Shown: one piece after another, positions 20,683-40,235 of the stretch
How the letters are laid out: the number at the start of each line of letters is the position of its first letter
Position numbering within the stretch: the stretch's first letter is position 1
NCBI GenBank assembly: GCA_034433695.1
Contig: DAOUAK010000038.1
Coordinates: 2,758 to 66,757 of the forward strand
Direction: 5' to 3'
Source: Chloroflexia bacterium
GTDB lineage: Bacteria; Chloroflexota; Chloroflexia; DTKN01
DNA: 64,000 nucleotides
The notes under the pieces: generated by a model
The model's database searches: none
Told to the model about the DNA's origin: nothing
Seen by the model: only the letters and a program-made list of their open reading frames with translations
Translations under genes and position numbers: made by a program

Positions 20683-22083
20683 CTACAGCTTCACCACCAC
20701 CATACCCCCTGCCGAACGACCCCAGAGTTCGGGCCGGTACATCGGATAGGCCTCGGCCGGCAGGGCGTGGAAGGTGCCGGCCGTCGTCGCCCGCGCCAGG
20801 TAGGTGAAAGTGTGCGGACCGGGGTCGAGTTCGTTGAAGAAGAGCGCCACGGCGTCATCGTACACATCCTTGCGGCTATAGAGGTAGTGGCCGGCCCCCT
20901 CATAAGCCCGGGCGGCGTAACTCGTGGTCGCCAAGCGCTCGTTCAGCCCTTCCAGCCCGGCCGGGAGGGGGTCGTAGAGGATGACGTAGTAGGCCATCTC
21001 CGGGAAGTTCACCGTCAGATGCACCTCCACCAGGTCGCCCACCCGGAGCGGCCCCTCGATCGGCTTCCCGCCGGGCCGGGTGTACGTCCGCTCCACCCGA
21101 ACCCGGCCGGCCGGCCGGATCTCTTCCTCCACGCTATAGAGGCGCAGGACCACGGTGTAGTATAGCCGGCCGTTCCCGCCGTGGAGCAACCGTACCTCGT
21201 TTTCCCCGATCCGGAGGGCCGTGGCGGGCAATACCACCCTCGCCCCCTGTTCTACCTGGGTAAAGGCTCCCTCGGCCACCGTCTGCCCGTTCACATCCAC
21301 CCGGTAGTTCTGCTGGTCCATCTGCATCTGCACGCTCAGCACATAGTCCGATAGCGCCAGCAGGGCATAGGAGGTTTCCTGGGTGGTGTTCCAGGCGTGG
21401 CCCCGACGCTGCCCCATCAGCCAGCGCACGACCTTGGGAATCAGAGGATGGTCCGGGCGGATGTGCACCAGTGCATCCAGGGCCAGTGCCGTCGAGCGTA
21501 CCGAAGAGGACATGGTCTTCTCCCTGTAGTGGCCGTCCTCGATTCCGGTATCCCAGTAGGCCAGGTCGTCCTTCACCACGGCCTTTTCCGCCAACCTGTC
21601 CACCAGCAGGCCGGCCGTGGCATCGTCTCCGGCGGTGTAGAGGGTCAGGGCCAGCGCGGCCTGGCTAAAGGGGTCAAAGTCCTTCACCTCGCCGTTCAGC
21701 ACCCGGGAAGCCAGTACCTGGGCCCGGCCCGGCTCCACGTGGCCGGCCGTAGCCAGAGCAAAGAGGGCATAGGCCTGGGTGCGGACATCCATCGTGTCCA
21801 GATGTTGGCGCAGGTATTCGGCCCCACGGGCGATCACGCCGTCGTCAATCTCAAAGCCGGCCTGTTCGGTCATCGCCAGACCGAAGAGGATGTAGGCCGT
21901 CTGGTAATCGTGGGAAGGATCGTCGAACCACCAGCCCCAGCCGCCGTCCTCGTGCTGGAAGCCGTAGAGTTTCTGCCGGCCGACGTCCACCATCTTGGGC
22001 AGGTCCGCCTCCAGGCGCTCGTTGCGTACCCCCAGGATCCGGAAAGCCCGACCGATGATCGCATTGGGGAGCACACGGCTCAT
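20683..22083 (-). CDS. Alpha-2-macroglobulin family protein, C-terminal part (thioester-domain alpha/alpha toroid plus receptor-binding-like domain)
   Basis: Terpenoid-cyclase-like repeats (GWGWWFDDPSHDYQTAYILFGLA). Begins TEQTMSRV 4 codons after an in-frame TGA that ends the upstream A2M ORF. Confidence 0.7.
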   Translation of the reverse strand: MSRVLPNAIIGRAFRILGVRNERLEADLPKMVDVGRQKLYGFQHEDGGWGWWFDDPSHDYQTAYILFGLAMTEQAGFEIDDGVIARGAEYLRQHLDTMDVRTQAYALFALATAGHVEPGRAQVLASRVLNGEVKDFDPFSQAALALTLYTAGDDATAGLLVDRLAEKAVVKDDLAYWDTGIEDGHYREKTMSSSVRSTALALDALVHIRPDHPLIPKVVRWLMGQRRGHAWNTTQETSYALLALSDYVLSVQMQMDQQNYRVDVNGQTVAEGAFTQVEQGARVVLPATALRIGENEVRLLHGGNGRLYYTVVLRLYSVEEEIRPAGRVRVERTYTRPGGKPIEGPLRVGDLVEVHLTVNFPEMAYYVILYDPLPAGLEGLNERLATTSYAARAYEGAGHYLYSRKDVYDDAVALFFNELDPGPHTFTYLARATTAGTFHALPAEAYPMYRPELWGRSAGGMVVVKL

Positions 22084-22095
22084 CGTCTGTTCCGT

Positions 22096-22098
22096 TCA
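22096..22098 (-). other. In-frame TGA at the predicted thioester-cysteine codon of the A2M gene (candidate Sec recoding site, inactivating mutation or sequencing error)
   Basis: Minus-strand reading is ...GAT TAC CCC TTT GGC TGA ACG GAA CAG ACG ATG..., i.e. DYPFG-stop-TEQTM. Canonical A2M thioester motif is YP(Y/F)G-C-x-E-Q. Confidence 0.7.
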
Positions 22099-25000
22099 GC
22101 CAAAGGGGTAATCGATGAGGTACTCCAGGCCGTCCAGAAGGGCGTTCACCACCGAGGGCGAAAGGCGGATCTCCAGCGTGGTCACCTCGGGAATCGCCTT
22201 CTCCGGCAAGACGATGCGCTCGATGTGTTCGCCCTGGAATTCCCCGGCCCACGTTTCCACCCGGGGCACGGCAAAGGGGCGCACCGGAATCGCGTACTGG
22301 ACGGCATCGCTCAGGCCCCCGCCCCGGGCGTAGGCGGTGACGGTGACGGCGCCCAGGGTGCCGGCTTCCAGGGCCCAATGGAGTGGGGCCGTTTCCCCGG
22401 CGGCCAGGCTTAGCGTCTGGGTAAGCGGGCTATGGAGGGCCAGACCCTGGGGAAGCAGGCCGGCCTGGAGGGATAGAGGACCTTCGCTGTAGTTATGCAA
22501 CGTGGCGGTCAGGGTGAAGGTATCGCCCTGGATGAGGAAGCGGGGGACGGCCGGCCGGATGACCAGCGGCTGGGTGACGGTGAGCGCCACCGTCCCCTCG
22601 CCCAGGCGCGTATCCACGGTGACGGCGCGGGCCAGCAGCCGCCAGCGGGTGAGCGAATCGGGCAGGCGCAACGTCACGACGGCCCGACCTTCGGCATCGG
22701 TCAGGATGCGGGGGTTCCAGTAGGCCGTATCGGGAAAATGGCGGCGCGGGTTGCCCACGTCAATGCCGTCGCCTCCACCGCCCCTCTCCGCCCCACCGAG
22801 TTCCCGCACCGGCTTGAGGGAGTGATAGGTGCGCACCAGGTTCGTCCGGCGGCTGTAGAAAGCCTCGAAGGGGTCCTGTGCCAGGTCCTGGGAAAGGGCG
22901 TAAATGGCCTCATCCACCACGGCCAGGGAAAGTTCGGCCTGCACCGGCCGGCCGGCTACATCGGTTACCTGAATGACGATTTCGGCCTCCTCCCGAGGCG
23001 CGTAGGTCGGGCGCTGCGGGGTAAGGGTCACCCGCAGGCGGCGCTCCTCCGGCGGAACGGCAAGTTCGGTACTGGCGATCAGGAGTTCGGCATCGGGGAT
23101 ACTGGTGTAACTCCAGTGGTCGAGCGGCTGGTTCGTCGGCCGGTAAATCTGCACCGTGACGAAAATGTTGGGGACAAAGTCGGCCTCCACGGGCAGGGTG
23201 ATGGCGGTGACGGTTCCGCTCAACTCCACCGGCTGCATCCGCCGCACCCGACCGCGCTCCAGGGTCAGGAGGGCCGTGCCGGTCACCGGCGAATGCACCA
23301 GAAGCCGGGCCGTCTCGCCCACAGTATAAGAGGATTTGTCGGCGCTGATGCTCAGGCCTCCGCCCTGCCCCCAGTCGACCCAGGGCGTAGCACCGGTGGG
23401 GTCATAGACCCAGATCCAATCCTCCAGTTCCTTTTCCCCCTGCACCAACACCCGGAACCACCCCTGCCGATCCACACGCAGGGGGAGGCGAGCCTGGCCG
23501 GAAGCACCGGTGACGAGTTCTCCCTGGGCCACGGGGACGTATTTCTCTCCATCCCAGTGGTAGATGCCGCCTTGGAGCCGGGCGCCGGCCACTGGCCTTC
23601 CCAGGTAATCGTGCACTACCACCTCCAGAGGAATCTCCTCCCCAGGCGAGTAAATATGGCGTCCCAAGAGCAAGGCGGCACCCTGCGGGTTTCGGTATAC
23701 CTCCACCAGGGCATGGCCGCTGACCGACTGACCGCTTCCGTCCTCCACCGTGGCCTCCAGGTCGAGGCGGGAAAGGTCGGGCGACCACCAGGAGTATTCG
23801 GCTATCCGGGCCGGGATACGCACCACCCAGCGCCCCTGGGCATCGGTAGTGCCGCCATAGTCCCCCTCCCGGTACAATTGGGCCCAGCAGTCGGAGGCAT
23901 CCATCCCGCATTCCCATTCACCGTAGGCCTGCTTGTAGACGGTCAGTTTGACCGGGGCTCCGGTCACAGGCCGGCCGAAATAGTACTGGGCCTCCACGGT
24001 CACCGTGATCGTCTCGCTCAGGAGGTAGCGCCCGCGGTCGGTCGTCACGGTGACCTGATAATCGGGCTTGCGGTACTCTTCCACCTTGAGCGCCTGGCGG
24101 GTAACCTCTTCGCCCACGACCACCTCGACGTTATAGGTGCCCAGCGTTCCACCTTCGGCCAGGGCAAAAGAGGTGTAGGCGGTGCCGAATTCGTTCAAAG
24201 GAAGCACCTGGGTGGCCAGAACGTTATCGCGGGCATCGCGCAGGCGCACGGTGATCGGGGTGCCGGCCGGGGGCAGGGAGTAGAGGGCATCGTCATCGTT
24301 GCGGACGACAGCGCGGACGTGGACCGTCTGGCCGGGCCGGTAGATAGGGCGGTCGGTATAGACATAGACGCGGAAAAGCCGGCCGGTAGGCGGGTTGGTG
24401 AGCCAGCCGCGCCAGGACCACCAGCCGCCCTGGGCATCCCACTCCGGCCCAAAGCCGCAGAGCGTCGTTTCGCCCTCCACCTCTCCCAGGGCGAGGAGCG
24501 GGTCGGTATCCCCCCCTACCGTTATCTCGAAGCGGCCCTGCTCCTCGGTCATACCCTGGCCGTAGAGCCGGCCGGAGCGGTCGTAGAGACGCACCACCAT
24601 GCCAGGGCGGGGCTGACCGGTGGAGATGCGCGTGGCGTACCCGGCCACCTGATGCTGGGCGGTGGTGCCGAGGCCGGTGGAGGCTTCCTTGAGGAGGAGG
24701 GTATAATGGGTCAGCACGACGATCAGGCGGTCGCCGTGGCCGGTGGAGGCTTGGGGGGCCAGGACATAGAGGCCGGGAGGAAGGTCGGCCGGGAGGGTCA
24801 CCTCCCTGTCCGTCTCCTCGGCTCTCCACTGGCGCACGATGGGCAATCCTTCGATGGAGATGACCACCGGGCTCTTGAGGGAGGAGGTATAGTCGGCCAG
24901 GAGGCGTTCCATCGGGAGTTGATAGAGGACAAAGATGGGAGGACAGGAGGCCGAATCCCAGCGCTCGTACTGGATACGGCGGGGGCCGGCGGCATCCATA

Positions 25001-26145
25001 ATCTGAATGTTGGGTCCGTAGCCAAAGTTCACCGCGGTCTGCCGGTAGTCGACCCGAAAGTTCCAGCGGAGCGGCTTCCGCAGGAGCGGGCTACCGTCGG
25101 CAGCACGGGCAGAAGGTTCCAGAAGCACCTGGTAGGTCTCCGAAGAAAGCTCCCCCGAAGGAACAAAGCGCAGGGCGGTTTTCTCCCATTCGAAGGTGCC
25201 GGCGAGGGTAGGGGTGATATGGAAGGCGGCCTCGACGCTGGCGTGGTCGGGTTCCCGGTCGAAGGTGATGCCGATGGTGCTGCAGGGCGAGGCCTTTCCT
25301 TTGGGGAAAACATCCACCACCCGCGAACGAGTGGTAAAGGTCCAGTGCAGCGGTTTCGCCAGGGTCATTATTCCGGCTTCATCCCGTGCCCCGGCATCCA
25401 GGGTGAGGGTATAGGTCGTCTCCACCTCCCAGCCATCTTCCGGCTCCAGAAGCAAGGTTCCTTTCGACCAGGAGAGGCGGTAGGGCGTCGCCGGCTCCAG
25501 GTGCAGGGCCTGTTCGATGGAGCGTGCGTCGACCGGATAGGGGAAGGAGAGAGATAGAGGGGCATCGGGATCGCGCCCCTGGGAGGCCCCGAGAAAGGTG
25601 GCAAAGGGCTGGGTGGTGAAGATGAGGCGAGGCGAGTTCCGGGCGCTGCGCACCTCGAGGATGTAGCGGGTTGCCGGTAGCCAGGCGGGGATGGGGGTCA
25701 GGGCCAGGGAACGTTCGTCCACGATCGTCCGGCGCAGGGGCACGCTCGGCGAGATCACGATCCGCACCGTCCTCGGGTCGATGGGGCGGTCGAAGGTGAG
25801 GACGAGAGAAGCCTGCAAGTGGGATGGGATCGGCCCGGTGCTTGTCAGGGGCGGAGATTTGCCCGGGGCGAAATCCTCCTGGAGGCGTTCCTCCACGAAC
25901 GCCCACCAGCTGATGGCCGGTGGGACGGGGGTAGGGGTAGGGGCCGGCGTGGATGTGGGGGACGGGGTAGACGTCGGGGAGGCGGTTGGGAGTGGAGGAG
26001 GCGGAGCGGCCGTCTCCCAGACGGCCGGCAGGAGCACCAGAAACAGAAGGAGCAGGAAGCCGAGAAACGGAACGGGCGCGATCAGACGGATGGACCCTTT
26101 CATCGTGCACCTCCTGGACAACTCCGGTGAGACCTTTGCCCTCAT
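22096..26145 (-). CDS. Alpha-2-macroglobulin family protein, N-terminal part (signal peptide, Ig-like and MG domains, bait region, A2M domain)
   Basis: Signal peptide and Pro/Thr linker. MG2-like motifs (YVYTDRPIYRPGQTVHVRAVV, KPDYQVTVTTDRGRY). Ends ...LEYLIDYPFG immediately before the TGA. CAGGAGGTG RBS before ATG at 26145. Confidence 0.8.
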   Translation of the reverse strand: MRAKVSPELSRRCTMKGSIRLIAPVPFLGFLLLLFLVLLPAVWETAAPPPPLPTASPTSTPSPTSTPAPTPTPVPPAISWWAFVEERLQEDFAPGKSPPLTSTGPIPSHLQASLVLTFDRPIDPRTVRIVISPSVPLRRTIVDERSLALTPIPAWLPATRYILEVRSARNSPRLIFTTQPFATFLGASQGRDPDAPLSLSFPYPVDARSIEQALHLEPATPYRLSWSKGTLLLEPEDGWEVETTYTLTLDAGARDEAGIMTLAKPLHWTFTTRSRVVDVFPKGKASPCSTIGITFDREPDHASVEAAFHITPTLAGTFEWEKTALRFVPSGELSSETYQVLLEPSARAADGSPLLRKPLRWNFRVDYRQTAVNFGYGPNIQIMDAAGPRRIQYERWDSASCPPIFVLYQLPMERLLADYTSSLKSPVVISIEGLPIVRQWRAEETDREVTLPADLPPGLYVLAPQASTGHGDRLIVVLTHYTLLLKEASTGLGTTAQHQVAGYATRISTGQPRPGMVVRLYDRSGRLYGQGMTEEQGRFEITVGGDTDPLLALGEVEGETTLCGFGPEWDAQGGWWSWRGWLTNPPTGRLFRVYVYTDRPIYRPGQTVHVRAVVRNDDDALYSLPPAGTPITVRLRDARDNVLATQVLPLNEFGTAYTSFALAEGGTLGTYNVEVVVGEEVTRQALKVEEYRKPDYQVTVTTDRGRYLLSETITVTVEAQYYFGRPVTGAPVKLTVYKQAYGEWECGMDASDCWAQLYREGDYGGTTDAQGRWVVRIPARIAEYSWWSPDLSRLDLEATVEDGSGQSVSGHALVEVYRNPQGAALLLGRHIYSPGEEIPLEVVVHDYLGRPVAGARLQGGIYHWDGEKYVPVAQGELVTGASGQARLPLRVDRQGWFRVLVQGEKELEDWIWVYDPTGATPWVDWGQGGGLSISADKSSYTVGETARLLVHSPVTGTALLTLERGRVRRMQPVELSGTVTAITLPVEADFVPNIFVTVQIYRPTNQPLDHWSYTSIPDAELLIASTELAVPPEERRLRVTLTPQRPTYAPREEAEIVIQVTDVAGRPVQAELSLAVVDEAIYALSQDLAQDPFEAFYSRRTNLVRTYHSLKPVRELGGAERGGGGDGIDVGNPRRHFPDTAYWNPRILTDAEGRAVVTLRLPDSLTRWRLLARAVTVDTRLGEGTVALTVTQPLVIRPAVPRFLIQGDTFTLTATLHNYSEGPLSLQAGLLPQGLALHSPLTQTLSLAAGETAPLHWALEAGTLGAVTVTAYARGGGLSDAVQYAIPVRPFAVPRVETWAGEFQGEHIERIVLPEKAIPEVTTLEIRLSPSVVNALLDGLEYLIDYPFG

Positions 26146-26240
26146 GTTACATCCGAAGTCATCCCGAGGGCCGACGTCAGGGGATTTGTTGGCCTACGTT
26201 TGTTCGACGCCAGGTAGACGGGGGCGTAAGGGAACGGCTT

Positions 26241-27182
26241 TCAAGAGGATGGCCAGCGCCAGGGTTCGTCCAGCAGGTGCACCTCCACCGTCTCGATGCC
26301 GTCCAGGCCTCGCAGGGCCCGGCGCACCTGCTCGGTGAGGTAGCCGGCCAGGGGGCAGGTAGGGCTGGTGAGCACCATATCTACCTCGGCCCGTCTTCCC
26401 TCCACCCGCACGTCGCGGATCAGTCCCATCTCCACCAAATTGCCTCCGACCTCGGGGTCGGGGATGCCGCGCAGGGCCTCCCAGGCCCGGGCCCGGACCT
26501 CGTCGGGCGGGGCAGGAGGAGAGAGGGGCGAGACACCGACCAGGGCCTCTTCCAGGGCACGTACCCGCTCTTCCAGCCGGCTGTAACGCTCCAGCACCTG
26601 GCTGAGGGCCTGCATCACCGGGTCGGGCAGGCGGCCGTGCTCCAGGTAGCCGGTGAGGTCGGCCGGTTCCCGGGGACCGGCCAGCCGGGCCGGCACCCCC
26701 ACCACCGTGGCCCCGGCCGGCACCGACCGCACCACCACCGAACCGGCCCCGATGCGGGCATCGTCCCCCACGGTGATCGGCCCCAGGAGGATGGCCCCGG
26801 CCCCGATGACCACCCGGTTGCCCACCGTCGGATGACGCTTGGTCTTCTGCAGGCTGGTCCCGCCCAGGACGACCCCCTGGTAGAGGAGCACATCGTCGCC
26901 CACCTCGGCCGTCTCTCCGATCACCACCCCCATGCCGTGGTCAATGAAGCAGCGCCGGCCAATCTTGGCTCCGGGGTGGATCTCCACGCCGGTCAGGAAG
27001 CGGTTGAAATGGGAAAGCAGTCGCCCCAGGAATTTGAAGCCGTGCCGCCAGAGGAAATGGGCCAGACGGTGCAACCAGATGGCATGGAGGCCCGGGTAGG
27101 TAAAGAGGACCTCCCAGACCGTGCGGGCGGCGGGGTCTTTGGCAAAGGCGGTGGCGATGTCCTCGCGCAGCATACGGAACAT
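26241..27182 (-). CDS. cysE: Serine O-acetyltransferase fused to a C-terminal DUF59/MIP18 (SufT-like Fe-S assembly) domain
   Basis: N-terminal SAT helical region and hexapeptide repeats ([44 protein letters not shown]). C-terminal ~90 aa carry [17 protein letters not shown]...[13 protein letters not shown], the DUF59 hallmark. Confidence 0.75.
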
Positions 27183-27198
27183 TTCGCGCTCCTGGGGA

Positions 27199-28158
27199 CT
27201 AATCCCCGAAGAGGTCGGTGCTCAGGTAGCGCTCCCCGGTATCGGGGAGGACGACGACGATGAGGGCCCCCGCGTTTTCCGGCCGGCCGGCCACCTGAAG
27301 GGCGGCATGTGCCGCCGCTCCGGAGGAGATGCCGCAGAGGATGCCCTCCTCGCGGGCCAGGCGGCGGGCCATGGCGATGGCTTCCTCGTCCTGGACCCGG
27401 ATAATCTCATCCACCAGGTCCAGGCGCAACACCTCGGGGATGAAGCCGGCCCCGATGCCCTGAATTCGGTGGGAACCCCGTTGGCCGCCCGAAAGGACCG
27501 GAGAGCGGGCCGGCTCGACGGCGATGGCCCGGAAGGAGGGTTTGCGGGCCTTGATGACCTCGGCCACGCCGGTGATCGTCCCTCCCGTGCCCACGCCGGC
27601 CACCAGGATGTCCACCTGGCCGTCGGTATCGCGCCAGATCTCCTCGGCGGTGGTGCGGCGGTGGACGGCGGGATTGGCCGGGTTGCGGAACTGCTGGGGG
27701 ATAAAGTAACGCGGGTCCTGGGCGGCCAGTTCCTCGGCCCGGCGCACGGCCCCGGGCATCCCTTCATCCCCCGGCGTCAGGATGAGTTCGGCCCCTAGGG
27801 CCCGAAGCAGCCGGCGGCGCTCCAGGCTCATCGTCTCCGGCATCGTCAGCACCAGGCGGTAGCCGCGGGCGGCGCAGACCATGGCCAGGGCGATGCCGGT
27901 GTTGCCGCTGGTCGGCTCCAGGATGATCGTGTCGGGTCCGATGAGGCCGGCCTGCTCGGCAGCCTCGATCATGCTCAACCCGATGCGATCCTTCACACTG
28001 GAACAGGGGTTGAACGACTCCAACTTGGCCAGAACGGTGGCCCCAAGCCCCCGGGCGACACGGTTCAGGCGCACCAAGGGGGTGTTGCCGATCGTCTCGG
28101 TGATATCCCTGTAGATCCGACCCATCGCTTTCCTCCGGAAGGTCCTCCAATCTGCCAA
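27199..28158 (-). CDS. cysK: Cysteine synthase A (O-acetylserine sulfhydrylase)
   Basis: PLP-enzyme motifs [20 protein letters not shown] and [10 protein letters not shown]. Confidence 0.9.
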
Positions 28159-28180
28159 TCCACTCCTCGAGGAAGGAGTA

Positions 28181-29968
28181 CTAATCCACCGTCAGCGTCT
28201 TGCTCAGATTGCGGGGAAAATCCGGGTCATAGCCCCGGGCCACGCTCAGGCGGTAGGCCAGGAGTTGCAGCGGAAGTACGGCCAGGAGGGGATTGAAGAG
28301 CGGGCCGGCCGAAGGCAGCACGATCAGGTCGTGGGCATTGGAGCGCAAGCGGGGGTCCTCTTCCCCGATGGCGATGGCCCGTCCGCCCCGACAGACCATC
28401 TCGTTGATGCCGCTGACCAGGAGGGGCACGTCTTCCGGGCCGGCCACAAAGAGCACGGCATAATCGTCCTGCACTGCCGAGAGGGGACCGTGCTTGAACT
28501 CGGTGGAAAGCATCCCCTCGCAGTGGGCGTAGGTAATCTCTTTCATCTTCAAGGCCCCCTCCAGGGCGATGGGATAGGTCAGGCCGTAGCCCAGACAATA
28601 GAGGTCATCCCGTTTCTCCAGGATCGGTTCCAGGGGGGCGATCTGCGGTTCCACCCGGGCAATCGTCTCTTCGAGCAGGTCGGGGAGGGCGTCCAGTTCC
28701 CCGGTGGAATGGCCGCCCAGACGCAGGGCGAGGAAAAGGAAGGCCACCGCCTGGTTCATAAAGGTCTTGGTGGCCGGCACGCTGATCTCATAGCCGCAGG
28801 CCAGGGGAAGGTAGCATTCGCTTTCGTGGCGCAGGGTGGAGCCGAGCACGTTGACCAGGGCCAGCCGGCCCATCCCCCGCTTCCGAGCCGCCTCCAGGGC
28901 GTTCAGCACGTCCTTGGTCTCCCCACTCTGGCTGACAAAGACCCCCACATCCTCCGGCCCTATGGCGTTGCCATACTGGGCGATGAATTGGGGGGCCAGG
29001 ATGGGGACGGCCGGCCGTCTGGCCAGCCGACCCAGATAGATGGCCCCCAGGAGACAGGCATGGTAACTGCTGCCGCAGCCGATCAGGTAGAGGTGATCGG
29101 CCCGGGCAATCCGCTCCACCATCGGTGCTACAAAGGGCGAGGCCTGGAGGAGGTGGAGGAGTTCCCGTACCCGCACCGGCTGCTCGTGAATTTCCTTCAG
29201 CATAAAGTGGGGATACCCCTCCTTCGTAGCCGCCTCGATGCTCTCGGTCACCCATTCCGGCTCCCGTTCCACCCGGCTGCCGTCCTCCACCTGGCGCAGT
29301 TCCACCCGATCGGGCCACAGGATAACGATCTCGCCGTCCTGCACCCGCAAGATGCGGCGGGTCAACGGCAGGATGGAGGGAAGGTCGGAGGAAACGCAGG
29401 TGGCCCAATCGGCCAGGCCGACCGCCAGGCTGGAGCCTTTCTTCAGAGCGTAGAGGCAGTCCTCGCCCATCCGGCCGATGACAAAGGCATAATCCCCGGC
29501 CAGGTCGTTATAGGCGCGGCGGATGGCCTCCACCATGTCATAGCCCCGATTCACATAGCGCTCCACGGCGTGGACGCACGACTCGCCGTCGTTGGTGGAG
29601 CGGACGATCATCCCCTCGGCCATGAATTCCAGGCGCAGTTCGACGTTGTTGACCACGTTGCCGTTGTGGGCACCGACCATATCGCCATCCGAGTCCAGGT
29701 GAGGCTGGGCGTTGGCCTGGGAGGGAGCGCCGAAGGTGGCCCAGCGGAGTTGCAGGATGCCCCGCCGACCGGCCATCTCGGCAAAGTTCAGCCGTTCGGC
29801 CACCTCGTCCACCCGCCCCACGTCCTTGCGGAGGTCAATGCCCTCGTCATCCAGGGTGGCACAGCCGACCGAATCATAGCCCCGGTAGGAGAGGCGCCGG
29901 CCGGCCTCGATGAGGATCGGCCCTAACGTCCGCCGATGATCGGTGACAATGCCAAAGATGCCGCACAT
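28181..29968 (-). CDS. glmS: Glutamine--fructose-6-phosphate aminotransferase (isomerising)
   Basis: N-terminal MCGIFGIV (Ntn glutaminase Cys2). Two SIS domains and C-terminal ...KTLTVD. AAGGAGGG RBS. Confidence 0.95.
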
Positions 29969-30039
29969 ACCGCCCTCCTTTTTGGCCTAGTGTACCACCC
30001 CGGCCCGATTCCGTCAAACCCAACTCCCTCCAGCACGGT

Positions 30040-30068
30040 TTGTATATCCGGGAGAGGCATAGTATAAT
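30040..30068 (+). promoter_or_regulatory. Sigma70-like promoter TTGTAT-N17-TATAAT directed toward the GT-C membrane protein gene
   Basis: ttgtat atccgggagaggcatag tataat, ~100 nt upstream of ATG 30167, in the glmS-divergent intergenic region. Confidence 0.4.
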
Positions 30069-30166
30069 GGAAACGATAACGTCCAGGGTCAGGTCCAGAG
30101 AGGAGCGCGGTTGGAACATCGAGACCCTCTCGAAGAGGGCCGGCCCCATCGGAGCCATTTCCGGCC

Positions 30167-32227
30167 ATGCAGAAGCAACCTTCACCCATTTTCCGCCCGA
30201 TCGCTACCCTGGGGAACGTCCTCCGCCGGGAGGTCCACCTCCTGGGACAGACCCTGGGCGATCCTTTCCTGGGCCTTTTGCTTCTGGGAACGGTTCTCCT
30301 GACCTTTCTGGCCGGCCAGGCCTTTCCCCCTTTCCGATTGGACGTCGGCGAGCAGCCGGATGAGGTCTACCTGAGCGGTTTTTACGAGCCGGAGAAGGCG
30401 GCCGGGGAGTCTTTCCGCTGGAGCACGGGAGAGGGTCGGCTGGACATTCCGGCCTCGGGCATGGTCCCCCTTCGCCTCGACCTGCGCCTCTCTGCCCCCA
30501 GGCCGGCCGAAGTTCCCCCACCACGCCTGAGCCTGGCCGGGAACGGCCACCTCCTCCTGGAGACAACCGTTGCCCCCGCTCCCCGGATTTACTCCCTTCT
30601 TCTTCCGGCGGAGGCCTCTTCCTTGGGAAATCTGGAGTTACGGTGGCGCAGCGAAACGTTCTCCCCGGGTGAAAGCGATCCTCGGGTATTGGGATTTGCG
30701 CTAGATCACCTGGAGATATGGCGGGTGGGCCGGCCGCTCGTCCTCCTCCCTCCCGAAGTCTACCTCTGTTCCCTTGCCACGGTCTTCTTGGCCGTGCTTC
30801 TGGCGCGGCGGCTGGGCTGGCCACGCCCGGGTGCCCTGGGCGTGGGGTTCGTCTGCGCCCTGGCGCTGGCCGCGGCCCTGGCCTGGGCCCGCCCGCTCCT
30901 GGCACCGGGCCTGCCTTTCCTCCCCCTGGCCCTGGCCTGCTCCTGGCTCTTCCACGCCCTCCTCCGGCGGCCGTTCGAGCGTTGCTTCGTCCGCCTGGGG
31001 GGCGGACTGCCCCTTTTCGCTGAGCGCGCCCTCTGGAGCACGGCGCTTTTCTTTCTGGCCGTGCGTCTGGCCGGCTGCCTTCACCCGGCGATGGAAACAT
31101 GGGACCTCTGCTTCCACTTCCACCGCCTTCAGGATGTGGCCCGGGGCGAACCTTTCTTCACCATCACCTCCGGGGAATGGCGGGGCTTGCAGACTCTCTA
31201 CCTGCCCTCGTTCTACGTCGTCCTGGCCCCCCTCTGGGCCGTCTTCGGCGGCCGGCTGGTGCCGCTCCAGGTCGCCGCCGTCCTTCTGGATACCTCGTCT
31301 GCCCTTCTGGTAGCCTACCTGTCCTGCCGGTTGCTGGGGAGGAAGGCGACCTGGCCGGCCGCCTTCCTTTACCTGACCATGCCGCAGTCCTCCATCATCT
31401 TCTCCTGGGGCATCGTAGCCAACATCTTCGGTCAGTGGCTTTTCTTGCTCCTGCTGGCCTTTTTCTTTTCCCCGGCCGGGAGGCTATCCCGCCGGCCGGC
31501 CTGGCTTTTGGCCGCGGGACTCCTGACGCTGGTGTGGCTTTCCCACCCCGGCACGGTCCTTCTGACGGCCGTCCTGCTGGGCGGCCTGCTTTTCCTGGCC
31601 CGGTTTTTCCCCGAGGGCCAAGGCCTTCCCCGGCCGGCCGTGGGGCGCTGGGTTGGGGTGGCGTTGGGGGCGCTGGCGCTTGTTACGGCGCTCTACTACA
31701 GCCACTTTGCCCCGACGATGTGGGCGGCGCTCCAGGAGATGGGGCAGGGAAGCAATCTGGAGCAGCCCCGCCATGGGGGAATCCTCATCCGTGGGCCGGT
31801 TACAGACCCCGACCTGGGCCTGCGGGCGGTCGAGGTCCAGGGTTGGGGACAGGCCATCCTGGCCGGAGCGGAAGAAGTGGCCGCCGAGGCCCGGGCTTAC
31901 TACGATGTCTGGCCACTTCTCCTGGCTCTGGCCGCGTTGCCCGGCCTGGCCTGGCAGCGGCGAGTTCCTGCCGTCCGGCTGCTGGGGCTGGCCTTTACAA
32001 CGGCCCTGTTTTTTGCTATGATTGGGTTGGTCTGGAATCTGTATGTGCGGTACATGTACTTTCTGCTGCCCTTTGTGGCGCTGGGAGGGGCCTGGTGGCC
32101 GGCCCACTGGAGCCGGCGTGGCCTGGCCGGCCGGTTGACGGCGCTCCTTACGGGGCTTTATTTGCTCTTCTTGGGGCTATCTTTCTGGGCCGGCCATGTG
32201 CTCTATTACTCGGCCGGTTGCCGTTGA
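30167..32227 (+). CDS. Polytopic membrane protein, putative GT-C-fold glycosyltransferase (PMT/ArnT-like) with an extracytoplasmic beta-rich insert
   Basis: 686 aa. One TM, then a ~130-aa soluble segment, then >10 hydrophobic helices. Sits directly upstream of two Dpm1-like GT2 genes. Confidence 0.45.
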
Positions 32228-35671: not shown

Positions 35672-36946
35672 ATGGATGTACATGCCGTTCGCGCCGATTT
35701 TCCCATCCTCCAACGCACCGTCCACGGCAAGCCGCTCATCTACCTGGATAACGCGGCCACCACCCAGCGGCCGCGCCAGGTCCTGGAGACGCTGGTAACC
35801 TTCTACAGCCACTACAACGCCAACATCCACCGCTCTCCCCACCTTTTGGGCCAGGAAGCCACCCTGCTTTATGCGCAGGCCCACGAAAACGTGGCCCGCT
35901 TCATCGGGGCGGAGGACGAGGGGGAGGTGATCTTTGTCCGCAACACCACCGAAGCCGTCAACCTGGTGGCAAACTCGCTCCTGCGCCGCGAAAGCGGGCC
36001 GCTGCGGTTGCTGCCGGGCGATGAGGTGCTCATCACCGTCATGGAGCACCATTCCAACCTGGTGCCCTGGCAGGCCCTTTCCCAGGAGGCCGGCCTGACC
36101 TTGCGCGTGGTAGACATCCGGGAAGACGGCACCCTAGACCTGGCCGACCTGGAGGCCCAATTGGGGCCGCGCACCCGGCTGGTCTGCTGTGCCCACGTCT
36201 CCAACGTCCTGGGGACGATCAACCCGGTAGCGGAGATTGCCCGTCGGGTCCACGCATCCGGTGCCCTCCTTCTGGTGGATGGGGCGCAGTCGGTGCCCCA
36301 CATGCCGGTGAACGTGCGGGAACTGGAGTGCGACTTCCTGACCTTTTCCGGGCACAAGATGCTGGCCCCCTTCGGCATCGGCGTCCTCTACGGCCGGCGG
36401 GCCCTCCTAGAACGGATGGCTCCCTTCCTCTACGGCGGGGATATGATCGCCGATGTCACGCTGGAGCATTCCACCTGGAACGAGTTGCCCTGGAAGTTCG
36501 AGGCCGGAACGGCCAATGTGGCCGGCGGCATCGCCCTGGGCGGAGCCGTGGACCTCTGGAGCGGCCGGAAACTGGTGGGGGCCGTGGATTACCTCCAGGA
36601 GATCGGCATGGAGCAGGTCCAGGCTCACGAGCGGGAGTTGCTGGCCCAACTCCTGCAGGGACTCCAGGCTATCCCCCGCGTCCGCGTCTACGGCCCCCTG
36701 GAGCCGGAACGGCGGGGGGCAGCCGTCTCCTTCACGGTGGAGGGCAGCAACCCTCACCTGATCGCCCAGTTTCTGGACGACGAGGGCATCGCCGTGCGGG
36801 CCGGCGGCCATTGCGCCCACCCGTTGGCCCGGCGGTTGGGCGTGGCGGGAACGGTGCGCGTCAGCCCTTATATCTACAACACTTCCGAGGAAATCGAGCG
36901 CTTCCTGGATGTTCTGGAGGGAATTGTGAGGAGGCAGGCGCTGTGA
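35672..36946 (+). CDS. sufS: Cysteine desulfurase, SufS-like (class V aminotransferase)
   Basis: FPILQRTVHGKPLIYLDNAATTQ, PLP-Lys region FSGHKMLAPFGIGVLYGR and active-site RAGGHCA. Confidence 0.85.
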   Translation: MDVHAVRADFPILQRTVHGKPLIYLDNAATTQRPRQVLETLVTFYSHYNANIHRSPHLLGQEATLLYAQAHENVARFIGAEDEGEVIFVRNTTEAVNLVANSLLRRESGPLRLLPGDEVLITVMEHHSNLVPWQALSQEAGLTLRVVDIREDGTLDLADLEAQLGPRTRLVCCAHVSNVLGTINPVAEIARRVHASGALLLVDGAQSVPHMPVNVRELECDFLTFSGHKMLAPFGIGVLYGRRALLERMAPFLYGGDMIADVTLEHSTWNELPWKFEAGTANVAGGIALGGAVDLWSGRKLVGAVDYLQEIGMEQVQAHERELLAQLLQGLQAIPRVRVYGPLEPERRGAAVSFTVEGSNPHLIAQFLDDEGIAVRAGGHCAHPLARRLGVAGTVRVSPYIYNTSEEIERFLDVLEGIVRRQAL

Positions 36947-37332
36947 GTACCCGATATACCCCGACGCTGCTGGAGCACTTTACCCACCCCCGCCACGTAG
37001 GGATGCTGGAGGATGCCGACGCTTCCGGCCAGGGAGGGGGAGGACCGCTCTGTCCGGAGGATATGGCCTACGTCTGGATCAAGGTCCGCGAGGGCCGCAT
37101 CGTCGAAATCGGCCACAAGACGATGGGCTGCCCGGTCGCCATTGCCTCCAGCAGTCTGACCTGCTCCCTGGCCGAGGGCAAAACCCTGGAGGAGGCGCTC
37201 CAGATCACCCCGGAGGTGGTCATCGAGGCCCTGGGAGGCGTCCCGGAGCGCAAAGCCGATTCGGTGGTGGCTCCGGAAGCCCTGCGCCGGGCCATCGAAT
37301 CGTACCTGGCCTCCCATGTCTCGGGTGAATGA
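36943..37332 (+). CDS. sufU: SufU/NifU-like Fe-S cluster scaffold
   Basis: GTG start overlapping the sufS stop. LEHFTHPRHVG...CPEDMAYVWIKV...GCPVAIASSS matches the IscU/SufU three-Cys pattern. Confidence 0.75.
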   Translation: MSTRYTPTLLEHFTHPRHVGMLEDADASGQGGGGPLCPEDMAYVWIKVREGRIVEIGHKTMGCPVAIASSSLTCSLAEGKTLEEALQITPEVVIEALGGVPERKADSVVAPEALRRAIESYLASHVSGE

Positions 37333-37441: not shown

Positions 37442-37719
37442 TCCCCGTTCGGCCTGGCCGGCGGGGTTGGAGGTTGCGTTTCGATGGACGAGGATTATCA
37501 ACGTAGTCGGGGACTGTGCGAGTCCGGGTGCGGGGCATCCGACCCGGGGGAGGTGGCTATGCCGATAGCCACCTGATCTTTTCCCCCGGTTCCCCCGCCT
37601 GAGGTCCCCCAGTCCCCTCCGAGATCGAAAGTACGCAAAACTTCAAAGCCATCTCATAGGATGTACAGGTGGAGTACCGGGTCCAGCCGTATGGGCCTGG
37701 GAACCACGGGAGGTGGACC
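37442..37719 (+). promoter_or_regulatory. Structured 5' leader with internal intrinsic-terminator-like hairpin (candidate riboswitch/attenuator)
   Basis: ~110 nt of GC-rich nested hairpins. Then GGTGGCTAT-gccg-ATAGCCACC followed by TGATCTTTT (37552..37582). The enclosing CCGGGGGA/TCCCCCGG arms can alternatively pair across the U-tract. Confidence 0.35.
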
Positions 37720-38976
37720 GTGCCGTATGTCAGCACGCTCCTGGGGAAGCCTGTTACCGACGTGGAAGGCAACCGCGTCGGCCGGCTGCAGGACCTCGTT
37801 GCCTCGCTCCGGGGTGCCATGCCCCATCCCATGATTGTGGCCCTGGCCGTCCGGAATCCCGAGGGCCTTCGCCTGGTCCCCATTTCTTCCGTGGCCGTCC
37901 TGATCGCTCCGGCCATTCCCCTCCGCCATCGCCTGCGGGATATTCCCTCTTACACCCCGGGCGAGCAGGAACTGTACCTGGCCCGCGATGTGCTCGATAA
38001 GCAGATCATTGATACCCGTGGAGCGCGCGTGGTGCGGGTCAACGACCTGGAACTGGCCCGGATCAACAACCACTTTTATGTGGCCAATGTAGACGTCGGT
38101 GGGCTGGGACTTTTGCGACGCCTGGGACTTGCAGGCCCGGTCGAGAAGATCGCCCGCTGCCTGAAGCGCCCGCTCCGATCCGTCAGCATCTCCTGGGACG
38201 CGGTCGAACTCCTCCCTGGCCAGAACTCGATGCGCCTGAAGGTGCCGGGGGAGAAACTGGCCGAACTGCACCCGGCCGACCTGGCCGAAATCATCAGCGA
38301 CCTCAGCCGCGTTGAGGGAAGCCGGTTGATCGAGACACTCGATGTCAAGACCCTGGCCGATACCCTGGAGGAGATCGAGCCGGACTTCCAGGCCAGCCTG
38401 ATCGAAGCCATGCCCGACGAGAAGGTGGCCGATGTGCTGGAGGAAATGGCCCCCGACGAGGCGGCGGACCTTCTGGCCGAACTGCCCCAGGAACGCAGCC
38501 GGGAACTCCTGGAACTGATGGAGGATGAGGAGGCCGAGGACGTTCGGAAACTGCTGGCCTATCCGGAGGACACGGCCGGCGGCATTATGAACACCGAGTT
38601 CGTCGCCATCCGCCCCAACCTGACGGCGGAGGAGGCCATCGCCGTCCTGCGGGAGACGGCCCACGAGGCCGAGACCATCTATTACGTGTACGTTACGGAT
38701 GAGGAGGGCCATCTCCTGGGGGTGTTCTCCCTGCAGGACCTGGTGCTGGCCCAGCCCAAGACGCCGGTAACCGACTTTATGCACCACCGCGTGGTCAACG
38801 TCCATCTGCGCGACAGCCAGGACAAGGTGGCCCAGATCGTGGCCAAGTACAATTTGCTGGCCGTACCGGTGGTGGACGATGAGGGTCGGATGCACGGCAT
38901 CGTCACCGCCGATGACGCCCTGGATAAGATCATTCCCACCGCCTGGAAGAAACGCCTGCCGAAGATGTGGGGGTAA
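37720..38976 (+). CDS. Soluble PRC-barrel (x2) + MgtE_N + tandem-CBS protein, with no MgtE membrane domain
   Basis: GTG start with GGGAGGTGG RBS. PRC-like LLGKPVTDVEGNRVGRLQDL. MgtE N-domain acidic helices (PDEKVADVLEEMAPDEAADLLAELP). Two CBS motifs. Ends before any TM region. Confidence 0.7.
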   Translation: MPYVSTLLGKPVTDVEGNRVGRLQDLVASLRGAMPHPMIVALAVRNPEGLRLVPISSVAVLIAPAIPLRHRLRDIPSYTPGEQELYLARDVLDKQIIDTRGARVVRVNDLELARINNHFYVANVDVGGLGLLRRLGLAGPVEKIARCLKRPLRSVSISWDAVELLPGQNSMRLKVPGEKLAELHPADLAEIISDLSRVEGSRLIETLDVKTLADTLEEIEPDFQASLIEAMPDEKVADVLEEMAPDEAADLLAELPQERSRELLELMEDEEAEDVRKLLAYPEDTAGGIMNTEFVAIRPNLTAEEAIAVLRETAHEAETIYYVYVTDEEGHLLGVFSLQDLVLAQPKTPVTDFMHHRVVNVHLRDSQDKVAQIVAKYNLLAVPVVDDEGRMHGIVTADDALDKIIPTAWKKRLPKMWG

Positions 38977-38978
38977 AG

Positions 38979-40235
38979 ATGACGTTCGGGCAACGTTTCA
39001 GGCCGTTCTGGGTACGCCTCCTGGCCTTCCTGTCGGTCATTGGGCCGGGCATCATCACCGCGAATGTGGATAACGATGCCGGCGGCATCACGACCTATTC
39101 CGTCGCCGGTGCCCACTATGGCTACGATCTGCTGTGGATGATGCCGCTGGTCGCGCTGGCCCTGATCGTGGTGCAGGAGATGAGTGCCCGGCTGGGAGTG
39201 GTCACCGGACGGGGGCTGGCCGCGCTGATTCGGGAGAACCTGGGGGCGCGCCTGACGGCGGTGGTCATCGGCATCCTGGTGCTGGCCAATCTGGCCAACA
39301 CGGTGAGCGAATTTGCCGGCATCGCCGCCGGCATGGAGATCTTCGGGGTCAGCAAGTACATTTCGGTGCCGCTGGCCGGCCTGGCGGTGTGGCTGCTCGT
39401 CATCCGGGGCAACTACCGTTCGGTGGAAAAGGTCTTCCTGGTGGCCAGCGGACTTTACCTTTGCTATGTGGCCTCGGGCCTCCTGGCCCGGCCCCGGTGG
39501 GAAGAGGTCCTCCACGCCCTTGTCCGGCCCTCCTTCCGCCTGGAGAGCGGCTTTATGACCATGGCCATCACCATCGTGGGAACGACAATCGCCCCCTGGA
39601 TGCAGTTCTACCAGCAGTCGGCCATCGCCGACAAGGGGTTGAAGCCGGCCGATTACCGTTACGAGCGGCTGGATGTGATCGTGGGCTCCCTCTTTGCCGT
39701 CTTTGTGGCGGCCTTTATCACCATTTCCTGCGCTGCCACCATCTACGGCCGCGCTCACATCGAGACGGCCCAGGACGCTGCCCGGGCGCTGGGTCCGCTG
39801 GCCGGCCCCTACGCTTCCACGCTCTTTGCCTTCGGCCTCCTCAATGCCTCGCTTTTTTCGGCAGCCATCTTGCCCCTCTCCACCGCCTATGTGGTCTGCG
39901 AAGCCTTCGGATGGGAATTGGGCCTGGGCCACCGGTGGAAGGAAGCCCCCATCTTCTTCGGGACTTTTACGGCCCTGATCGTCCTGGGAGGCGGGGTGGT
40001 CCTTTTGCCGATCCCTTCGCTGGTCCAGGCGATGATGTTCAGCCAGACCCTCAACGGCATCCTTCTGCCGCTCGTCCTGGTGGTGATGCTCCGCCTGGTC
40101 AACGACCGTCGCCTGATGGGCCATTTCGTCAATGGTCGGGTGCTCAATGCCTTCTCCTGGGCCTCGGCGGGATTGGTCATCCTGCTCACGGCCCTTCTGG
40201 TGCTCAGCCCCTTTCTGCCCGTTCCGGGCACTTGA
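38979..40235 (+). CDS. mntH: NRAMP-family divalent metal (Mn2+/Fe2+) transporter
   Basis: GPGIITANVDNDAGGITTYS and LLWMMPLVALALIVVQEMSARLGVVTG are NRAMP hallmarks. ~11 TM helices. Confidence 0.85.
   Translation: MTFGQRFRPFWVRLLAFLSVIGPGIITANVDNDAGGITTYSVAGAHYGYDLLWMMPLVALALIVVQEMSARLGVVTGRGLAALIRENLGARLTAVVIGILVLANLANTVSEFAGIAAGMEIFGVSKYISVPLAGLAVWLLVIRGNYRSVEKVFLVASGLYLCYVASGLLARPRWEEVLHALVRPSFRLESGFMTMAITIVGTTIAPWMQFYQQSAIADKGLKPADYRYERLDVIVGSLFAVFVAAFITISCAATIYGRAHIETAQDAARALGPLAGPYASTLFAFGLLNASLFSAAILPLSTAYVVCEAFGWELGLGHRWKEAPIFFGTFTALIVLGGGVVLLPIPSLVQAMMFSQTLNGILLPLVLVVMLRLVNDRRLMGHFVNGRVLNAFSWASAGLVILLTALLVLSPFLPVPGT

Follow-up and report, generated by a model that had tools for sequence, protein, structure and literature searches.

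In a 64,000-nucleotide stretch of DNA from a Chloroflexia bacterium (assembly GCA_034433695.1, contig DAOUAK010000038.1, positions 2,758 to 66,757; hereafter the window), the minus-strand gene at 26241-27182 almost certainly encodes a truncated-isoform serine O-acetyltransferase (SAT), CysE, fused to a SufT-like DUF59 domain. This architecture is already catalogued but uncharacterised, and we describe it here as a large family of bacterial and methanogen proteins. We tentatively favor the interpretation that DUF59 serves in these proteins as an adaptor between the enzyme and the machinery that mobilises sulfur for iron-sulfur (Fe-S) clusters. For annotation, the practical outcome is that the window's gene should be entered as a truncated-isoform cysE with a fused DUF59, which is probably transcribed together with cysK and has no docking tail.

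A truncated CysE fused to DUF59

The gene is one unbroken open reading frame (ORF) of 313 codons, giving a protein of 313 amino acids (aa) before a TGA stop; it opens with ATG, and its GC content at third codon positions (0.86) matches that of the neighbouring genes. An earlier, sequence-only reading of the window had placed a fusion of CysE and DUF59 at these coordinates, which were right, without stating the strand; the plus-strand translation of 26241-27182 yields nothing meaningful. The domain calls were also right, since both families exceed their curated cut-offs: the NCBIfam model TIGR01172 (cysE) matches aa 6-166 with 248.5 bits against an equivalog cut-off of 210.65, and the Pfam family FeS_assembly_P (PF01883) matches aa 231-301 above its gathering threshold, with 71.5 bits against a cut-off of 23.5, over profile positions 2-71 of 73. 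The two motifs quoted in support of DUF59 are present as well, the 17-letter one at aa 242-258 and the 13-letter one at aa 269-281. Of the three Pfam families that the reading had expected, Hexapep (aa 117-150) and FeS_assembly_P were recovered and SATase_N gave no match in the scan of the protein, because this is an N-terminally truncated CysE isoform. The features of the gene are as follows:

27189..27193, minus: ribosome-binding site AGGAG, 6 nt before the ATG and inside the 16-nt gap after cysK
26688..27182, minus: serine O-acetyltransferase core, aa 1-165, with truncated N-terminal helices and a left-handed beta-helix
26937..26942, minus: codons of D81-H82, aligned with E. coli CysE D157-H158 (the catalytic His), invariant in 121/121 sequences
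26616..26687, minus: hinge (aa 166-179) and L-x-H-x-x-L-P-D-P-V motif (aa 180-189), from the alignment and the structural model
26535..26615, minus: heptad helix, aa 190-216, a/d positions VLVYLVLL, 8/8 hydrophobic
26496..26534, minus: Pro-rich variable spacer, aa 217-229, mean pairwise identity 0.18
26259..26495, minus: DUF59/FeS_assembly_P (PF01883), aa 230-308, with the DPE motif at aa 242-244
26355..26357, minus: codon of Cys276, the conserved DUF59 cysteine in T-x-x-x-C-P, kept in 113/121 sequences
26241..26258, minus: C-terminus R-W-P-S-S and stop, with no terminal Ile and no GDGI-type docking peptide

The SAT core has a mean pairwise identity of 0.73-0.83 in the fused family, matches SATs in the PDB with E values of about 1e-39 up to aa ~170, and is modelled by AlphaFold2 (AF2) with a predicted local distance difference test score (pLDDT) of 86-96. 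D16, D81-H82 and R116-H117 align with D92, D157-H158 and R192-H193 of E. coli CysE and are invariant in the family, and E67 aligns with E. coli D143, a position that is also Glu in Bacillus subtilis CysE; we take these E. coli residues, from published SAT structures, to be the catalytic and substrate-site ones. With its motifs intact, the enzyme seems, by its sequence, able to catalyse the reaction. The match of the E. coli-type CysE model to the window protein begins only at model position 82 of 273, and this, together with the missing SATase_N match, assigns it to the truncated isoform: in the alignment and the AF2 model the first four N-terminal helices (~76 aa) are gone and an elongated C-terminal helix (aa 188-217) follows the core. 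That isoform was described by Oldham et al. (2025; PMC13040420), who reported the first four helices as absent and predicted a trimer. The SAT core thus resembles those of the truncated CysE of B. subtilis, Staphylococcus aureus and Mycobacterium tuberculosis in lacking the first ~76 residues of E. coli CysE (PMC13040420), and B. subtilis CysE, which is 54% identical, has in common with it the L-x-H-x-x-LPDP motif and, behind the beta-helix, a helical tail built of heptads. Unlike the truncated isoform, however, the window protein adds a Pro-rich spacer and a ~80-aa DUF59 behind the helical tail.

The linker between both domains can be traced to this isoform. Its hinge (aa 166-179) is flexible, poorly conserved and disordered in the AF2 model, and the motif that follows is almost invariant (identity 0.80 for LxHxxLPDP) and recurs in unfused truncated CysE, as in LNHQDLPDPV of B. 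subtilis. When searched with tblastn against plasmid records, unfused truncated CysE of Bacillus, Staphylococcus, Ralstonia and Methylococcus match to about aa 199, and the aligned tail region of B. subtilis CysE reads ...LNHQDLPDPVADRFKSLEQQILELKAEL.... Because unfused truncated CysE align through the motif and into the helix, the linker is the truncated isoform's native helical tail, and the earlier statement that the canonical tail has been replaced is inexact in this respect: the isoform's own tail (LxHxxLPDP and heptad coil) was retained. The helical tail of truncated CysE has been modelled by others as a coil between three subunits (PMC13040420), and the helix at aa 190-216 is probably a three-stranded coiled-coil stalk on the SAT trimer. 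The AF2 model as a whole reaches a pLDDT of 82 and a predicted template modelling score (pTM) of 0.51, with both globular parts confident and their relative placement not, and this pTM, together with the disordered hinge, permits no conclusion on inter-domain geometry.

DUF59 itself matches stand-alone DUF59 proteins in the PDB (2cu6 with E=1e-16; also 5ird and 1uwd) and has a pLDDT of 82-91; its mean pairwise identity is 0.61 against 0.18 in the spacer, which indicates selection on the domain. It carries D242-P243-E244 and T272...C276-P277, and shares the PF01883 fold and both motifs, cysteine included, with SufT and other stand-alone DUF59 proteins (S. aureus SufT, M. tuberculosis Rv1466, Thermus thermophilus TTHB138 and Thermotoga maritima TM0487). 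It differs from them in being fused, in scoring below the SufT equivalog cut-offs (57.8 bits against 143.4 for TIGR02945 and 47.3 against 202.6 for TIGR03406), and in not lying beside sufBC. No sufB, sufC or sufD was found among the ORFs scanned in the 64-kb window, and the operons of the relatives, which carry sufS, nifU_N and thiF, have no sufBC either, so that neither by score nor by sufBC context is the window DUF59 a SufT equivalog. The window holds no second DUF59/SufT gene in its 64 kb. In M. tuberculosis, SufT homodimerises and binds SufS and SufU via the conserved cysteine, and binds neither Fe nor a cluster (PMC9045647), while SufT of S. aureus aids the maturation of Fe-S proteins when demand is high (PMC4982691); the DUF59 cysteine has been described as hyper-reactive (PMC4982691; PMC9045647). 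Among the fused proteins, the eight that have lost it (P0061, P0075, P0082, P0088, P0096, P0103, P0108 and P0115, with Y, R, T, G or H instead) are confined to the class with GxGI tails (8/49, against 0/91 in the other classes; Fisher p=1.5e-4, kinship ignored), and the cysteine may be dispensable where CysK is docked.

Distribution of the fusion

All of the best 120 matches in a collection of 5.8 billion proteins contain Hexapep and PF01883, at 62-94% identity, and the named ones among them come from metagenome-assembled genomes (MAGs) of Anaerolineae/Chloroflexota and, in one case, of Binatia. A total of 139 fused sequences were aligned. An identical protein occurs on an independent contig, and the architecture is also on record among the Pfam domains precomputed for public proteins. 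In species-representative genomes, a scan detected at least 20 fused loci with full-span matches in MAGs of Anaerolineae (Anaerolineales) and, unexpectedly, in Methanothrix, Methanosarcina, Methanoregula, Methanospirillum and related MAGs, and a metagenome scan added at least 36 further loci; both counts are lower bounds, and the window's own species is not among the genome matches listed. The survey across Chloroflexi that had been proposed from the sequence therefore finds the fusion widespread in Anaerolineae/Chloroflexota, and in methanogens besides. Searched with linker and DUF59 at the level of 50%-identity representatives, the family collapses to a handful of them, which argues for one compact family and not for many independent fusions.

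Neither a failure of the DUF59 profile nor a frameshift, the two pitfalls named in the sequence-only reading, was found, given the strong PF01883 match and the recurrence of the fusion in the 120 best relatives. The idea that cysE and a separate DUF59 gene were joined by a frameshift or an assembly error, in whose favor we found nothing beyond the general commonness of stand-alone DUF59 genes, was rejected on the continuous frame, the uniform codon bias, the independent contig and the comparative data, and its probability is negligible. An unfused cysE followed by a separate DUF59 gene was seen at 0/104 control loci among the matches listed, the only related case being an Anaerolineales locus (L025, described below) where NifU_N carries the DUF59.

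In the literature searched, the architecture is found only as the 'S9 architecture (n = 1)' of Mashruwala et al. (2016; PMC4982691), which likewise combines an N-terminal CysE-like domain with DUF59. That paper lists one case without analysis, whereas the family described here is large, has several tail classes and conserved operons, and extends to methanogens. The fusion is absent from a 2025 survey of CysE diversity.

The methanogen cassettes (L009, L011, L013, L016-L018, L020, L023 and many of L100-L129) encode a CysK that is 73-77% identical to that of the window, a remarkably high value across domains of life, and a fusion that is 54-62% identical. Such sequence similarity points to a movement of cysK-cysE::DUF59 between domains as a unit. 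Kitabatake and colleagues reportedly proposed in 2000 that the cys genes of methanogens are bacterial acquisitions, and the near-identical Anaerolineae/methanogen cassette agrees with this older idea.

The C-terminal tail and CysK docking

E. coli CysE ends in ...YGDGI, which in E. coli and Salmonella is the CysK-docking peptide, and the pentapeptide binds Salmonella CysK with a dissociation constant of 11.8 uM (PMC9547175); more generally, both complex formation and feedback inhibition by cysteine are mediated by the C-terminal segment of canonical SAT (PMC13040420). In CysE that can form the complex, a free C-terminal Ile, borne by a flexible tail, enters the active site of CysK; this Ile is absent from the window protein, which ends in ...EPWRWPSS. 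In 49/120 of the best relatives, on the other hand, the protein ends in Ile, with a conserved WGDGI C-terminus after DUF59, and 47 of these 49 have a strictly conserved 15-residue extension in that place (S-W-x-D-A-A-P-x-L-L-W-G-D-G-I); about half of the methanogen versions end in Ile too (...KQRGxLxQI). DUF59 and a CysK-docking peptide are thus compatible, as 49/120 relatives carry both. The tail classes track clades in a neighbour-joining tree rooted with unfused CysE: the window clade (Q, P0001-P0007 and L094) is tail-less, and a few degenerated tails lie inside the GDGI clade.

The claim that DUF59 has taken the place of the docking tail can accordingly be kept for the window clade and some others, which have no terminal Ile, but not for the family, in which so many members retain WGDGI behind the domain. 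To judge from the sequences, the peculiarity of the window lineage is the absence of the docking peptide, and unfused B. subtilis CysE is equally without it, whereas S. aureus and M. tuberculosis CysE end in Ile. Because that peptide is missing, the window protein is unlikely to enter into the canonical cysteine synthase complex of CysE and CysK, and to this extent the earlier suggestion that regulation or complex formation may differ is reasonable, although B. subtilis CysE shows that the condition is not unusual. In comparison with the E. coli/Salmonella complex, the same two enzymes are encoded by adjacent genes in the window, and the WGDGI of the tailed relatives is close to YGDGI; the window protein differs in its RWPSS end and in lacking the hexamer-building N-terminal helices, and in the fused relatives the docking peptide stands behind an extra domain.

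Gene neighbourhood in the relatives

Among the matches listed, to which all locus counts in this section are limited, cysK lies directly upstream of the fused gene in 15/22 bacterial-type and at least 16 methanogen-type loci. In 14/22 informative bacterial-type loci, sufS and/or nifU_N belong to the same gene string, as compared with 16/85 for the unfused truncated cysE obtained from the same scans (odds ratio 7.5, p=9e-5, kinship ignored), and we conclude from these two frequencies that the link of cysE to desulfurase/scaffold operons pre-dates the fusion and is strongly enriched with it. The window clade has the string Rrf2 - cysK - cysE::DUF59; elsewhere we found Rrf2 - cysK - thiF - sufS - cysE::DUF59, cysK - nifU_N - cysE::DUF59 - sufS and cysE::DUF59 - sufS - nifU_N, and in two loci (L097 and L098) the full string Rrf2-cysK-thiF-sufS-nifU_N-cysE::DUF59. 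The desulfurases of the relatives exceed the SufS family cut-off, their NifU_N scaffolds are nearest to NifU/IscU models and well below the SufU cut-off, and the Rrf2 proteins that often head the operons are nearest to IscR, all with C-x8-C-x5-C. Docking of CysK onto a CymR-like regulator was considered and rejected, since eight operon-heading Rrf2 proteins have IscR-like cysteines and no terminal Ile.

DUF59 also changes partners along the same route. In the Anaerolineales locus L025 (254-2785), cysE stops right after the coil and spacer, and the operon continues with a NifS-type desulfurase, a NifU_N::DUF59 gene two genes downstream of cysE, whose DUF59 has no cysteine, and tusA, as if DUF59 had been lost from CysE. 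NifU_N::DUF59 proteins of ~211 aa, with a DUF59 that lacks the conserved cysteine, are also encoded at L004:1197-1829, L005:2796-3434 and L007:4361-5068, within a few kb of cysE::DUF59. Outside CysE, the DUF59 domains closest to that of the window are fused to SufE, IscA-type, DUF1858 or Mrp/ParA domains. Given this variety (CysE, NifU_N, SufE, IscA-type and Mrp), DUF59 can be regarded as a module that is joined to one or another protein of the route from cysteine to cluster. The CysE fusion has in common with the others (NifU_N::DUF59 or 'S5', SufE::DUF59, IscA-type::DUF59 and Mrp/HCF101) that the module sits on a protein of that route, and differs in having as its partner no carrier of sulfur or clusters but a biosynthetic enzyme that acts one step upstream of cysteine.

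Some further features of these loci were recorded as separate observations. A CdhD-family (PF03599) gene adjoins cysE::DUF59 in at least five loci (L090:8951-10265, L091:7003-8270, L092:2115-3427, L098 and L102), and in three annotated ones (L090-L092) it is followed by a gene for a small 4Fe-4S ferredoxin; L092 also has a tusA - JAB - thiF - nifU_N string reminiscent of sulfur-carrier-protein systems of the CysO/Mec/MoeZ type. In one Anaerolineae MAG (L005:5923-6540), a 5'-truncated fused gene starts inside the beta-helix, without the catalytic Asp-His, keeps the linker, DUF59 and a WERF tail, and lies behind sufS-nifU_N and a fragment of cysK; either decay of the copy or a fault in the assembly may account for it.

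Gene neighbourhood in the window

The neighbouring genes that bear on the fusion are the following:

27199..28158, minus: cysK (O-acetylserine sulfhydrylase A), TIGR01139 473 bits, directly upstream of cysE::DUF59
28181..29968, minus: glmS, 22 nt upstream of cysK
35672..36946, plus: SufS-family cysteine desulfurase, TIGR01979 536 bits against a cut-off of 475, outside the operon here, although its homologue shares an operon with the fusion in relatives
36943..37332, plus: NifU_N scaffold of the IscU/NifU type; the nifU_N genes that immediately precede cysE::DUF59 in L004-L006 are about 65% identical to it

The order glmS - cysK - cysE::DUF59, with gaps of 22 and 16 nt on the minus strand, includes a cysK that the sequence-only reading had left unmentioned. 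In the interval 25900-30400 there is a single promoter-like site, at 29989-30017 in front of glmS, and there are no terminator-like sites. Rfam families, the glmS ribozyme included, gave no match above threshold in the whole 64 kb, and a regulatory RNA around the operon was rejected on that account. No Rrf2 gene occurs in the 64-kb window, while in the relatives an IscR-like Rrf2 occupies the position upstream of cysK.

The sufS-sufU pair that had been located ~8 kb away does consist of a SufS-family gene and a scaffold gene about 8.4 kb off, on the opposite strand, but the scaffold is a NifU_N protein; with a SufU score of 43 bits against a cut-off of 92.5, and closer to NifU/IscU models, it bears the name sufU only as a loose label. 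The genes in between are glmS, an ORF without a Pfam match, two glycosyltransferase genes and a creatininase-family gene. At this distance, on the other strand and behind five unrelated genes, proximity in the window is weak evidence. The idea that the fusion links cysteine supply to Fe-S biogenesis, drawn at first from that proximity, is sustained instead by the operons of the relatives, with their sufS, nifU_N and IscR-like genes.

Elsewhere in the window, the alpha-2-macroglobulin gene downstream of cysE::DUF59 (20683-26145, minus) is split into two ORFs by an in-frame TGA at 22096-22098, which takes exactly the place of the CxEQ motif's thioester cysteine (...LIDYPFG-TGA-TEQ...). As TGA is one base from TGC/TGT, the gene could be a pseudogene with a point mutation or the stop a sequencing error; alternatively, the UGA could encode selenocysteine. 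No obvious selenocysteine insertion sequence was found, and 65 nt spanning the TGA and ~55 nt after it fold no better than shuffled sequences (z=0.30). Downstream of sufS-nifU_N lie genes for an MgtE_N/CBS-domain protein and then an Nramp transporter (37669-40235, plus), and a cyclic-di-AMP receptor gene (PF06153; 43882-44232, minus).

Possible roles of the DUF59 domain

In the mechanism that we consider the best available, even if we would hold it with somewhat less than even confidence, a catalytically intact SAT, co-expressed with the upstream cysK, would feed CysK with O-acetylserine for cysteine synthesis, and the native heptad coiled-coil helix would be the stalk that displays three SufT-like DUF59 domains at the far end of the SAT trimer. 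With its reactive cysteine kept, DUF59 would act as a protein-protein adaptor that tethers the SAT to a SufS-type desulfurase and/or an IscU-type scaffold, and cysteine production would be physically or regulatorily coupled to the mobilisation of sulfur for Fe-S clusters; CysK would be docked as well in the tailed relatives, though probably not in the window protein. The tie of DUF59 to SufS/SufU-type partners and to Fe-S maturation is one that we infer from operon context. The fusion, the presence of SufS, scaffold and IscR-like regulator genes in the same operons and the move of the domain from CysE to a scaffold together suggest that DUF59 acts where cysteine passes to the desulfurase.

Several observations weigh against this adaptor role. 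The literature searched contains no experiment on a family member, its sole mention being a one-line architecture listing. The closest relatives of the window locus (L088, L093 and L094) show only Rrf2-cysK-cysE::DUF59, and the Fe-S operon link comes from other clades; the window's own sufS-nifU_N pair is on the other strand, 8.4 kb off and beyond five unrelated genes; and an adjacent desulfurase is missing in most methanogen loci among the matches listed. Unfused cysE, moreover, also sometimes lies beside Rrf2-sufS-nifU (16/85 loci among the matches listed), so the neighbourhood does not single out DUF59. The DUF59 cysteine is lost in eight relatives, the domain scores below both SufT equivalog cut-offs, and the AF2 monomer has no confident inter-domain geometry (pTM 0.51).

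Two other roles for the domain seem unlikely to us, to about the same degree. DUF59 might be mainly an oligomerisation module, whose pairing across trimers rebuilds a tail-to-tail hexamer and which has no direct Fe-S role. This would suit a truncated isoform that is predicted to be trimeric and has lost the four helices joining trimers head to head (PMC13040420), the homodimerisation of M. tuberculosis SufT, the independent globule on a helical stalk that AF2 predicts for DUF59, and the tolerance of cysteine loss in eight relatives, all in the clade that keeps the CysK-docking tail. Yet the conservation of the DPE and TxxxCP motifs goes well beyond what structure alone would call for, sufS/nifU_N are enriched in the operons and DUF59 swaps between CysE and NifU_N, and unfused truncated CysE enzymes work without such a module.

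DUF59 could alternatively be a regulatory sensor, the cysteine of which reports redox, persulfide or Fe-S status and modulates SAT activity or cysteine feedback, thereby replacing the job of the canonical tail. That job, cysteine feedback inhibition and complex formation, is known for the canonical SAT C-terminal segment (PMC13040420), and the highly conserved LxHxxLPDP hinge (0.80), the hyper-reactive DUF59 cysteine and the IscR-like regulators heading the relatives' operons fit a sensor. Against it, DUF59 would be held roughly 45 Å away (estimated from a helix of 30 residues) and beyond a variable, Pro-rich spacer; it does not touch the catalytic domain in the AF2 model, and no precedent is known for DUF59 as an allosteric domain.

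It is very improbable that the protein is an EpsC-like O-acetyltransferase for sugars or polysaccharide and not a SAT of the cysteine pathway. In favor of that reading, the NCBIfam EpsC model NF041874 also gives a score (231 bits) that exceeds its cut-off of 150, and within 8 kb there are glmS, directly upstream, and genes of the GT2 and GT4 families. EpsC itself, however, carries a serine O-acetyltransferase annotation, the positions that align with the serine/cysteine site of E. coli CysE have conserved residues, and the conserved neighbour is cysK in two domains of life, the glmS neighbour being found only in the window.

A bolder extension of the adaptor role, which we regard as doubtful, makes CysE::DUF59 the organising subunit of a cysteine-to-cluster metabolon, in which three DUF59 adaptors would dock SufS and an IscU-type scaffold, possibly pairing with NifU_N::DUF59, and an optional WGDGI would recruit CysK. 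If this were true, a single assembly would both make and desulfurate cysteine while the pool of free cysteine did not rise, CysK would be part of it in some lineages and not in others, the tail-less form of the window leaving it out, and DUF59/SufT would have a concrete biochemical role at the cysteine-supply step.

Whichever role applies, this work adds to the catalogued architecture its classes of tail, the derivation of the linker from the native tail, operon statistics set against a control, the exchange of DUF59 between CysE and NifU_N, and its presence in methanogens. The family offers a natural experiment on the cysteine synthase complex, because sister clades have kept or lost a near-canonical WGDGI behind an extra domain. 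It is also a good handle on the role of DUF59, even though the window copy, tail-less and with no operonic sufS, is its least informative variant, since the fusion of this domain to the enzyme that commits serine to cysteine may be taken as a Rosetta-stone hint to what DUF59 does.

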